A stretch of DNA of 64,000 nt, from positions 1,300,690-1,364,689 of the forward strand of contig CAVRJM010000001.1 of NCBI GenBank assembly GCA_963722075.1, given 5' to 3'. A program made the translations under genes and the position numbers. Below, piece after piece: positions 1,619-61,207 of the stretch. A model generated the notes under the pieces. It ran no database searches and had not been told where the DNA came from. It saw only the letters and a list, made by a program, of their open reading frames with translations. The DNA comes from Candidatus Babeliales bacterium (GTDB lineage: Bacteria > Babelota > Babeliae > Babelales > JANWKD01). The first letter of the stretch is position 1. The number at the start of each line of letters is the position of its first letter.

Positions 1619-1646
1619 GTCATTCCGAACGAAGTGTGGGAATCCA
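1619..1646 (+). repeat. Family-A GTC-tagged palindromic repeat, single copy
   Basis: GTCATTCCGAACGAAGTGTGGGAATCCA; stem TTCC/GGAA. Confidence 0.75.
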
Positions 1647-1665
1647 TTTATTTATTGATACCTCC

Positions 1666-2169
1666 TTATTGATTCTTATAATACAAACTAAGAATTGCTT
1701 TTAAATTAGTGGTGGCAGTATCGCCTTGTTTTAATCGTTCTTGAATCTCTTTTGCCGTTAGCCAATAAGCAGCGCTAAAATCATTTTTTTCAAATGAAAT
1801 ATCGGTATGGGGAACTTTAATTTCATAGACCGCAACATAGCCATTTACTGTATGTTCAAAAGGAGAAATAAAACCCAAAAATGTATATGAAACGGTGCTG
1901 ATATCAAGCATCACTTCTTCTAAGACCTCGCGCTTTAATGCTTCTTGATAGGTTTCGCCTGAAATAACGCATCCGCCTACGCAGGCCAAATTATTGGGAT
2001 AATCAATCTTGGTAGGCGCGCGGCGTGGAATAAAAAATTTATTTTCATGCCTAATGAGTGCACATACTAAACGGAAATTTTTCTTTTTTTGTGCGAATGC
2101 ATCAGTGCGTTTCATGGTTGCTATAATAGTGCCAGAGGCATCTACTAAATCTATTAATTCATCAGTCAT
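1666..2169 (-). CDS. NUDIX hydrolase (Idi/YfcD-like)
   Basis: Nudix box GGCVISGETYQEALKREVLEEV; N-terminal ELIDLVD. Confidence 0.85.
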   Translation of the reverse strand: MTDELIDLVDASGTIIATMKRTDAFAQKKKNFRLVCALIRHENKFFIPRRAPTKIDYPNNLACVGGCVISGETYQEALKREVLEEVMLDISTVSYTFLGFISPFEHTVNGYVAVYEIKVPHTDISFEKNDFSAAYWLTAKEIQERLKQGDTATTNLKAILSLYYKNQ

Positions 2170-2251
2170 GATAATTCCAAATTTATAGCTTTATATAATA
2201 ATTATTTTATTATTATACCACAGTGATCGTTAAAACTAAAAAGGTGACATT

Positions 2252-2872
2252 ATGCTATTCAGATCAAAAATTGCTTGTGCAGCTCTATTACTAAATTTAT
2301 TTTTGTGCCCGTTAGCACAATCGAATGAAAGTCCTTTTAACCAAATAATAGAATTATTAGAATCCGGTGGTAACCATGATTATATTGGCGAACCGGTTTG
2401 CCAATTAGAACATGCCTTACAATGTGCTCAATTGGCAGTTGATGCTGGTGCTGATGATCAAACGGTACTAGCGGCATTACTTCATGATATTGGCCATTTA
2501 TGCGCATCTGGTGATAACGCAACGATGGGTGAATATGGCATCGATCAACATGAAAAAGTGGGCGCTCAATTTGTTCGTGATCATGGTTTGCCCGAAAAAG
2601 TTGCGCAACTTATTGAAGGTCATGTACAAGCAAAGCGGTATTTAACCGCTAAATATCCGGAATATTATCAAAAGCTTTCTGATGCTAGTAAACAAACGCT
2701 TGAATATCAAGGCGGCCCGATGTCGCCAGAAGAGGCTTTAGAATTTGAAAAAGACCCGTTATTTGAACAAAAGCTGCAAATGCGTTATTGGGATGAGCAA
2801 GCAAAGAAAGTGGGTTGGCAGGTAAAGCCGTTAGAAGATTATAAAACTTTGCTTGTTAATTATTTGCGTTAA
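2252..2872 (+). CDS. HD-domain metalloenzyme, PhnZ/TmpB-like oxygenase, with predicted signal peptide
   Basis: GEPVCQLEHALQCA, AALLHDIGH, HEKVGA, HVQAKRYL, LSDASKQTLEYQGG and RYWDEQAK fit the PhnZ-like HD family. Confidence 0.8.
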   Translation: MLFRSKIACAALLLNLFLCPLAQSNESPFNQIIELLESGGNHDYIGEPVCQLEHALQCAQLAVDAGADDQTVLAALLHDIGHLCASGDNATMGEYGIDQHEKVGAQFVRDHGLPEKVAQLIEGHVQAKRYLTAKYPEYYQKLSDASKQTLEYQGGPMSPEEALEFEKDPLFEQKLQMRYWDEQAKKVGWQVKPLEDYKTLLVNYLR

Positions 2873-59898: not shown

Positions 59899-60600
59899 TT
59901 ACCAATGCATGAGCGTGCCATCATAGCGATAAAAAAGCTGTTCTAGTGAACGCGGTGCATTTATAATAACCTTTTTCATGCCCAAAACGCTGGTGGTAGT
60001 ATCAATTTCAGCATGCGGGCCTCCCATAGCAGTTCTTACATGCCCCGGATGCAACAAAAGTACTTTAACATTTTGATCATACGTATCAATGGCAATGCTT
60101 GCCATAATACTATTAAGCGCTGCTTTGCTGGCGCGATAGGCATATGCATCTTCGATGGAAGCGTGTTCTTTAAGAATATAGGAAATGCTACCCATGCGGC
60201 TTGAAATTGAAACAATTGTTTTTAAGTTGCTTTTTATAACGTTATTTAAAAAATATTTCGTTACTAATAAAGGGCCAACTGCATTTACCGTAAATACGTT
60301 GATCATCATTTCTTTGGTAATGGTAGCCAGTTCTTGGTCTCGTCCAAAAATGCCGGCATTATTAATAAGAATGTCGATCGGTTCGGTTTTTAATTGATTA
60401 GCAAGAATAGATAATTGATTCTCATCAGTGACATCCAAGGGAAGGAGTACGATATTATTATGGCGGTAAGCGAGTGATTGCAATTCTTCTAAAGGGCCAT
60501 GTGGATAATAGGTAGCAAATAGTTTGTAAGAATCTGGCGCATACTGCTTTACAAATTCTAATCCGATGCCGCTATTGGTTCCTGTTATAAATACATTCAT
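59899..60600 (-). CDS. Short-chain dehydrogenase (C-factor/CsgA-like)
   Basis: ITGTNSGIG, LINNAG, SSRMGS, YRASKAALN, HPGHVRTAMGG. Confidence 0.92.
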   Translation of the reverse strand: MNVFITGTNSGIGLEFVKQYAPDSYKLFATYYPHGPLEELQSLAYRHNNIVLLPLDVTDENQLSILANQLKTEPIDILINNAGIFGRDQELATITKEMMINVFTVNAVGPLLVTKYFLNNVIKSNLKTIVSISSRMGSISYILKEHASIEDAYAYRASKAALNSIMASIAIDTYDQNVKVLLLHPGHVRTAMGGPHAEIDTTTSVLGMKKVIINAPRSLEQLFYRYDGTLMHW

Positions 60601-60733
60601 ATTTTTATACTCAATAGTTAATTTTAATCACTATATAAAATGAAATGATGAGTGCGCAATATTAAAATTGATTGTATTATTTAAAAATGTAAATTGTTGT
60701 AGAATTTATACTCAAAGTTTATGAAAGAATGCA

Positions 60734-60836
60734 GGATCACCATGGTCCGTCTATGTTAAAACTTCGCCGGACAGGCGCTTGCTATTACGGAATCCGTCGT
60801 AGCCTTGGCGAAGTCGGACGCGCTTCTCGTGACGTC
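60734..60836. repeat. Inverted family-A repeat interrupted by two family-B hairpins
   Basis: GGATCACCATG [B 60745-60774] .. [B TCCGTCGTAGCCTTGGCGAAGTCGGA 60793-60818] ..CTCGTGACG; compare the intact copy at 17334. Confidence 0.7.
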
Positions 60837-60850
60837 GAAAGTCGAAAGTC

Positions 60851-61207
60851 GTCGTTGCGAGCTTGCGAAGCAATCCAGGTTATAATAATTAGATAAGAAA
60901 CATATGAAACGCCCTGCTGTTTATTCTTTATGGCAAATAAAAAAAATGGAACCCTTTACACCTGAGTAACAGGAAATATAATTCAGCGAATTTTTCAACA
61001 TAAAAATAATAAAGTCGAATTTACTAGCAAATATAATTGTAAAATGCTTGAGTATGTTGAATTTTTTGGTGAAATGCAAACTGCTGTTATGCAAGAAAAA
61101 CAAATAAAGGCTGGCTCTCGTTCAAAAAAGCTAATACTTATTGAATCGGCAAATCCAATGAGAGATTTGTAAATTGCCTGGATTGCTTCGACAAGCTCGC
61201 AACGACA
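60851..61207. mobile_element. Candidate repeat-flanked nuclease cassette: inverted family-A repeats around a GIY-YIG pseudogene
   Basis: GTCGTTGCGAGCTTGCGAAGCAATCCAGG (60851-60879) and CCTGGATTGCTTCGACAAGCTCGCAACGACA (61177-61207) are near-perfect inverted repeats; mobility is inferred. Confidence 0.6.
60904..61172 (+). pseudogene. Small stand-alone GIY-YIG nuclease pseudogene (not in ORF track)
   Basis: Manual translation MKRPAVY/fs/MANKKNGTLYT*VTGNIIQRIFQHKNNKVEFTSKYNCKMLEYVEFFGEMQTAVMQEKQIKAGSRSKKLILIESANPMRDL*; frameshift near 60925-60929, TGA at 60963 in place of the motif Gly. Confidence 0.88.

Follow-up and report, generated by a model that had tools for sequence, protein, structure and literature searches.

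A co-varying DNA hairpin repeat of a Babeliales bacterium and its association with two residues of Ssn-type GIY-YIG nucleases

The DNA stretch studied here (the window) covers 64,000 nt of the genome of Candidatus Babeliales bacterium (assembly GCA_963722075.1, contig CAVRJM010000001.1, positions 1,300,690 to 1,364,689). The whole genome, named G000, amounts to 1.47 Mb in 4 contigs and is 99% complete. Coordinates without prefix are window positions, C1 and C4 are contigs of G000, and L-numbers are nuclease or homologue loci. The window carries copies of a short hairpin repeat, family A, and a broken gene for an Ssn-type GIY-YIG nuclease. An earlier note on the window had described the repeat but overlooked this candidate protein, whose gene sits between the last two repeats that it listed (60851 and 61206). 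The hairpin repeat and its link to Ssn are already known; the new part is a predictive rule that ties residues 70 and 74 of the nuclease to the hairpin type.

The family-A hairpin and the nuclease gene beside it

A strict pattern gave 20 matches in the window, 17 of them with a perfectly paired 4-mer, while a covariance model built from 18 window copies recovered those 18 strong copies plus three decayed ones. Including a TCAC-type copy split over 60733-60836, the window holds 21-22 copies, against the figure of about 23 in the earlier note; each of the 13 positions listed there has a copy, with an offset of 0-2 nt, and five of them (9032, 17142, 24518, 43215, and the one ending at 61207) lie on the minus strand. 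Genome-wide, head-plus-tail matches were perfectly paired in 217 out of 274 cases, against 0-1 of 52-63 in five shuffles. A total of 252 copies were kept in G000 (219 perfect, plus 33 of the 49 with one mismatch and a G+C-rich core). The types are TTGC (89), TCCT (49), TTCT (34), TCCC (34), TCAC (18), and TTCC (14), with TCTT (5), TGGC (4), and five single copies as minor ones.

The fold consists of an unpaired GTC head, a 5-bp basal stem starting with R-T, an internal loop with GA opposite G-N-N, a free apical hairpin, and a CCA tail. The base before GTC is C or T in 245/252 copies, and the unpaired C/T-GTC tag, the A-T first stem pairs, and the CCA tail are all present. The apical hairpin is very variable, with 35 forms in the 49 TCCT copies, 47 of which are still paired. 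Among 189 apical loops, C-GNA-G occurs 54 times, GNRA nine times, and UUCG never; GNA mini-hairpins of DNA far exceed their RNA counterparts in stability (PMC13037366; here and below, published work is cited for the accessible parts of its text).

In copies chosen without using the three variable pairs (n = 153), Watson-Crick pairing was found in 152, 151, and 144 cases (149 with G-T). On the 16 distinct window copies, paired cells reached 98.1% against 79.2% in shuffles, and the covariation score was 0.627 against 0.304 (none of 500 shuffles was as high), while on the same copies the two measures based on the number of pair types missed significance (104/500 and 414/500 shuffles). The claim that the two 4-mers of the stem co-vary is thus borne out by the genome-wide pairing and by the window shuffles for pairing and covariation score. 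As the copies stem from about eight types, there are few independent compensatory events, roughly as many as there are types rather than copies. Family A is a real, co-varying DNA hairpin.

Most copies are intergenic (223/252 outside open reading frames, whose crude calls underlie all gene-context counts). Single copies lie in sense (34) or antisense (38) to genes, and on the leading or lagging strand in 64 and 65 cases. The Rfam search of the window returned no match. The GNA triloops, the lack of strand bias, and the lack of an Rfam match favour a fold of single-stranded DNA (ssDNA) over one of RNA. The earlier proposal that a protein recognises a folded ssDNA or RNA with fixed ends stands for the folded strand, which is the most likely target, while its RNA half is disfavoured.

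The Pfam GIY-YIG search of G000 found eight places, three of which are Ssn-type genes, and a profile search of the genome found no further Ssn gene. All three are bracketed by inverted TTGC copies with the heads outward. One is intact (96 aa, C1:1398408-1398695): its product passes the Pfam GIY-YIG cut-off and keeps Y7, Y18, R28, H32, E64, and N83, so that the catalytic tyrosines and glutamate are retained. The copy at C1:140112-140399 is degenerate, with changed catalytic-motif residues. The window pseudogene, 73% identical to the intact copy, has a frameshift near its start, an in-frame stop at 60963, and a damaged 3' end. Residue 70 is Gly in two of the three genes and Arg in the degenerate one, all of them in TTGC cassettes.

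The intact protein is 49% identical (89 aa, E 1e-31; E 8e-20 in the collection search) to a 94-aa Neisseria gonorrhoeae homologue, which is flanked by canonical NTS. On sequence criteria it is an Ssn protein: a single-domain GIY-YIG with the catalytic residues, a homology that passes the tblastn limit of E<1e-10 over 75%, and a hairpin on both flanks. Its AlphaFold model (predicted local distance difference test, pLDDT, of 95) resembles the GIY-YIG domains of UPF0213, Slx1, and UvrC, and the E64 helix and the helix after it meet in a kink made by residues 70-71. The PDB, searched by sequence and fold, returned only UPF0213, Slx1, and UvrC and no Ssn-DNA structure from which to take the contacts made by residues 70 and 74; in NCBIfam no family passed its cut-off. 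G000 also encodes DprA and ComEC domains.

Within the phylum, 66 of 261 genomes have an Ssn homologue, and many other phyla have homologues together with the same TTGC hairpin. Tyr70 enzymes are present in the relatives G108 and G109, with TCCT and TTCT hairpins on their flanks. The syntenic place in the congener G108 has neither the cassette nor the neighbouring gene; as this site is only 66% identical, no target duplication can be called.

Residues 70 and 74 and the type of the flanking hairpin

We collected 269 homologous loci, 80 from one homologue search and the rest from the phylum, from metagenomes, and from the class of genome G261 (70 loci); they are a subset of the listed hits, and the sampling is biased by the queries used. 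A hairpin lies on both flanks in 149/269 loci, and both sides are of the same class in 143 of these 149. A flanking hairpin was called in 217 loci; after removal of three mixed-class and two broken-frame rows, 212 were scored.

Gly70 agrees with an internal loop plus a purine at stem position 3 in 210/212 loci, and Trp74 agrees with a continuous stem in 209/212. Trp or Tyr70 with Lys74 goes with a pyrimidine at stem position 3 and an internal loop, and Trp70 with Trp74 goes with a continuous stem, a combination that also fits the N. gonorrhoeae protein (W70/W74). Among the 96 alignment columns, residue 70 is the best for the purine trait, and the best column outside the segment 68-75 reaches 169; residue 74 is the best for stem continuity, and the next best reaches 176.

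The rule was then recorded before scoring and applied, with the same detector, to held-out loci from three other samples. The 69 new loci included one duplicate, and 14 of the remaining 68 had no called hairpin. Among the 54 scored loci the rule was right for 52, the misses being L329 and L369.

In trees built without the segment 68-75, which are poorly resolved, the purine trait undergoes 9-19 changes, in step with residue 70. The approximately unbiased (AU) test with columns 68-75 removed, on 38 rows picked after a tree had been seen, rejected a single clade for the Gly70 group (p 0.009). Switches are found among close relatives at L099, L124, and L103.

A pattern scan of metagenomes gave 30 loci, ten of them without a nuclease match; those with a match are pre-selected for pyrimidine stems. 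Six loci (L096, L128, L131-L133, and L136, in genomes G047, G048, and G050) form an Ssn clade with 60-75 nt multi-loop hairpins and unusual residues 69-74.

Arrangement of the copies and other features of the window

Neighbouring family-A copies within 150 nt are inverted in 78/80 cases, with 37 tail-to-tail and 41 head-to-head dimers. No inverted pair within 40 nt is of one type (0/63, with 11 expected by permutation), a count that overstates the independent events since dimer types spread as units. The dominant close pairs are TCCT-TTCT and TCCC-TTGC, and the same TTGC-TCCC pair is present in the relative G109. Close inverted partners share a longest run of 5-7 nt, against within-type medians of 11-13. 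At distances of 41-400 nt, 25/35 inverted pairs are of one type, mostly TTGC units of about 190-235 nt.

TTGC units carry common outer flanks of 30-40 nt, which we take to recall BIME-1. Scored with reference sequences hand-picked from the same set of units, flank type b lies 3 standard deviations (SD) over background at one end in 15/23 units and type a in 12/23. Six units have both, always on opposite ends. Judged from its sequence, type b seems to be the eroded remnant of a partner copy that stood head-to-head. About 20 TTGC...TTGC units lie on C1 of G000 (e.g., at 149823, 337456, and 1377558), with AT-rich interiors of 110-180 nt and asymmetric outer flanks; some interiors are 71-85% alike at distant sites. 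This suggests a MITE-like or BIME-1-like element of about 300 bp, with undefined ends. The interiors were also considered as ssn remnants, but they are not recognisable as such, and some are related to each other. In G108 and G109 there is a dispersed 39-nt repeat with a GTCA head and a TCCA tail without the family-A stem (at least five copies in G108).

The features of the window are listed in Table 1.

Table 1. Family-A copies, outer flanks, and nuclease pseudogene in the window
Feature	Position	Strand	Evidence
Family-A copy TTCC/GGAA	1619..1646	+	pattern and covariance model
Family-A copy TTGC/GCAA, tail-to-tail partner of 9032-9060, 31-nt spacer	8974..9000	+	pattern
Family-A copy TCCC/GGGA	9032..9060	-	pattern
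Family-A copy TTGC/GCAA	10161..10188	-	pattern
Decayed TCCC-type copy, head-to-head with 10161-10188	10202..10229	+	covariance model, 19.1 bits
Family-A copy TTCT/AGAA, changed head GTTA	17143..17175	-	covariance model
Decayed TCCT-type copy	17192..17228	+	covariance model, 18.8 bits
Family-A copy TCAC/GTGA	17335..17364	+	pattern
Outer flank type a (shared, weakly conserved)	24420..24454	+	score 0.46, about 2 SD over background
Family-A copy TTGC/GCAA, left end of four-copy mosaic	24455..24482	+	pattern
Family-A copy TCCT/AGGA within mosaic	24519..24546	-	pattern
Family-A copy TTCT/AGAA within mosaic	24563..24594	+	pattern
Family-A copy TTGC/GCAA, right end of mosaic	24627..24653	-	pattern
Outer flank type b	24654..24690	-	score 0.62, about 5 SD over background
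Family-A copy TTGC/GCAA	28288..28314	+	pattern
Family-A copy TTGC/GCAA, 63 nt from 28288-28314	28378..28405	-	pattern
Family-A copy TTGC/GCAA	30143..30169	-	pattern
Decayed family-A copy	30182..30214	+	covariance model, 14.9 bits, E 0.12
Family-A copy TCCT/AGGA	43126..43160	+	pattern
Family-A copy TCCT/AGGA, tandem GA/GA step in apical hairpin	43217..43250	-	pattern
Family-A copy TTCT/AGAA	43263..43291	+	pattern
Decayed TCAC-type copy; apical part holds two second-repeat units (60745-60772, 60793-60818)	60733..60836	-	read from sequence
Family-A copy TTGC/GCAA, upstream arm of nuclease cassette	60851..60877	+	pattern
Ssn-type GIY-YIG nuclease pseudogene, Gly70/Lys74 type	60904..61172	+	Pfam GIY-YIG and homology
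Family-A copy TTGC/GCAA, downstream arm of nuclease cassette	61179..61206	-	pattern

A second repeat family (TCCG...CGGA) is found in the window at 60745-60818, about 17280-17312, and about 48760-48790, with 32 matches to a rough pattern in G000. Its units can be nested in the apical loop of a family-A copy, and a similar nesting occurs in L097 and G110. The window also contains, at 53565-59351, three tandem paralogous genes with export-like N-termini, whose 5' parts are 70-75% identical.

G000 encodes in addition a second GIY-YIG family of about 80 aa (L002, L003, L004, and L008, at C1:371244, C1:1122058, C1:1112723, and C4:5471). Three of these four genes follow a tRNA gene (Gln, Gly, Glu) on its downstream side, at a distance of about 170-195 nt and amid a different hairpin repeat; two are broken. 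They may represent another nuclease-repeat system, one associated with tRNA 3' ends.

Known systems and interpretation

The closest known system is SsnA with its NTS hairpins (Chenal et al. 2025, PMC11893778). Binding of SsnA to the NTS hairpin is limited to ssDNA, and the cut falls upstream of the hairpin, 5 nt before GTC as we worked out from the published oligonucleotide and 20-nt product. The enzyme depends on two bases, the head G and the C that follows the stem, and it lowers transformation; inverting the palindrome with the fold kept abolished its activity. As in that system, we found a hairpin-flanked gene for a single-domain GIY-YIG protein of about 95 aa, hundreds of intergenic copies, and 49% identity of the protein to the Neisseria homologue. 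Both positions at which a change blocks SsnA, the GTC head and the C that follows the stem, are preserved in family A. By contrast, the family-A stem is interrupted by the GA internal loop after 5 bp, the G000 protein has Gly70/Lys74 instead of Trp70/Trp74, and eight or more stem types coexist in one genome. The published degenerate SRM pattern matches none of the 252 family-A copies, so family A is a variant and not a plain SRM; across G000 the pattern has two matches, at chance level, and it catches only 29/79 continuous-stem loci. In the accessible text of PMC11893778 we found no rule relating residues to hairpins.

The resemblance to CGTC-tagged repetitive extragenic palindromic (REP) sequences, proposed in the earlier note, is confirmed by the tag, the first pairs, the CCA tail, and the inverted heterodimers. 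Families 1-4 of these repeats (Di Nocera et al. 2013, PMC3733652) share the C/T-GTC tag, the A-T first pairs, and the CCA tail, and are likewise intergenic, with inverted dimers, favoured heterodimers, and several types per genome. Unlike family A, they have stems of 8-9 bp and loops of 4-5 nt, no internal loop in the accessible text, and rare tail-to-tail dimers, which in family A are about as common as head-to-head ones. Their partner enzyme was not known to those authors, who equated the Rickettsia repeats RPE-4 and RPE-6 with CGTC-4 and CGTC-1; the two Rickettsia repeats appear to be continuous-stem types, unlike family A. The REP/BIME elements of Escherichia coli with TnpA-REP (Messing et al. 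2012, PMC3479197) also combine a 5' tag with a bulged stem, an apical tip that is not contacted, alternating types in mosaics, and a need for both bulge and stem sequence. However, they pair an HUH tyrosine enzyme with a GTAG tag, whereas family A pairs a GIY-YIG hydrolase with a GTC tag. Membership in the GTAG REP/RAYT group was rejected on the tag and on the sole Y1 gene of G000, which has no adjoining copies. This gene (L009, G000:C1:156495-156854) encodes an IS200-type Y1 transposase, has end hairpins of its own, and bears no relation to family A. In the open literature, searches with the motif strings returned only unrelated papers, those for Ssn follow-up work from 2023 on nothing beyond the 2025 paper, and those for Dependentiae with GIY-YIG or REP nothing on the family-A repeat.

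The explanation that we consider probable is that family A is the internal-loop hairpin of Ssn genes, and that its stem versions are likely targets of Ssn variants distinguished by residues 70 and 74. From its sequence, the intact G000 nuclease likely serves the purine types, while the 136 pyrimidine-type copies in G000 are predicted to be orphans or passengers. When the DNA is single-stranded, during replication or uptake, the 96-aa nuclease would bind the folded strand, recognising the head G, the C that follows the stem, and the upper part of the basal stem. If it works like SsnA, the cut would fall about 5 nt upstream of GTC. Such breaks would probably fuel the recombination by which the repeats are copied, and they may restrict the integration of incoming DNA. 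Paired stem changes likely arose in two ways: nuclease variants switched target, so that TCCT, TTCT, TCCC, and TTCC are predicted to be orphans whose Tyr/Trp70 enzymes were lost here and survive in relatives; and close inverted neighbours would have to differ, so that each folds alone and not as one long palindrome. A wider form of this reading, which we advance only tentatively, is a two-residue code of Ssn (purine or pyrimidine at 70, continuous or looped at 74), in which the six coexisting stem versions would record, as fossils, a series of mutually orthogonal nuclease-hairpin pairs that entered this lineage one after another, and Ssn would be the missing agent that spreads the CGTC REPs.

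Several points weigh against this explanation. In the same AU test, a single clade for the continuous-stem group was not rejected (p 0.20, 38 rows). Only two independent pairs lie on well-supported (starred) branches, and the sign test is not significant. Independent origins of residue-hairpin pairs are few and only partly resolved, and the residue rule may reflect few events. The loci without a called hairpin, 52/269 in training and 14/68 held out, went unscored; L110 and L147 by eye combine Lys74 with near-continuous stems, and L120, L121, and L203 have mixed flanks. Unlike 4-mers lie on the two sides of the gene in 40/149 loci, so that specificity within a class is loose. The flanks shared 30-40 nt beyond the predicted cut are an ill fit to simple cut-at-heads transposition, and binding, cleavage, and spreading by the G000 nuclease are inferred. 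Lastly, the predicted orphan types are not significantly more decayed than the others (22/136 vs 10/111, p 0.13), which keeps alive the rival that follows.

One resident Ssn could read shape only and accept all six stems, the residue correlation being due to shared ancestry. The unlike 4-mers flanking the same gene, some of them across classes, would fit this, as would the mostly intact pyrimidine types in a 99% complete genome with no Trp/Tyr70 gene and the few well-supported independent switches. We nevertheless judge it unlikely given the 52 correct calls among 54 held-out loci, the Gly70 group that is not one clade and the switches among close relatives, and the loss of SsnA activity on palindrome inversion (PMC11893778). 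The earlier phrase "structure, not sequence" is thus half right: the fold is kept, but the type is tied to residues 70 and 74 across phyla, and this tie together with the inactivity of SsnA on the inverted palindrome leaves the phrase unsupported as stated.

Less probable still is that the covariation is a mutational by-product, with template switching or conversion between the arms changing both in one step and no selection on the fold. The single-copy types TTAC, TTAT, TCAT, and TTGT are each fully compensated and independent events are few, as expected from such a process; yet under such repair the GA/G-N-N loop would tend to disappear, whereas it persists across types and phyla, the apical hairpins differ widely while staying paired, and the link to nuclease residues would be left unexplained. 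A role as RNA elements (terminators or 3' stabilisers) could account for the enrichment between convergent genes (57 copies vs 34 expected by length) and for the G-T at the base pair in 76/82 perfect TTGC copies. It is made very improbable by the absence of a sense bias, the 46 copies between divergent genes, the lack of an Rfam match, the DNA-type triloops (PMC13037366), and the fact that SsnA does not bind RNA (PMC11893778). The least credible partner is an HUH (RAYT or IS200) transposase, as for the GTAG REPs: the anatomy is similar to that of the E. coli REP, with its 5' tag and bulged stem (PMC3479197), and G000 has one Y1 transposase, but this gene has no family-A copy within about 260-320 nt, while 3/3 Ssn genes have one.

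As far as its accessible text goes, the SsnA work leaves unsettled how a 95-residue nuclease picks its hairpin and whether Ssn spreads the repeats. Our results suggest that most of the family escapes the published SRM pattern. The two-residue rule reduces the specificity question to a few oligonucleotide assays and point changes and, by predicting the hairpin, would point to ssDNA cutters that are orthogonal to one another.

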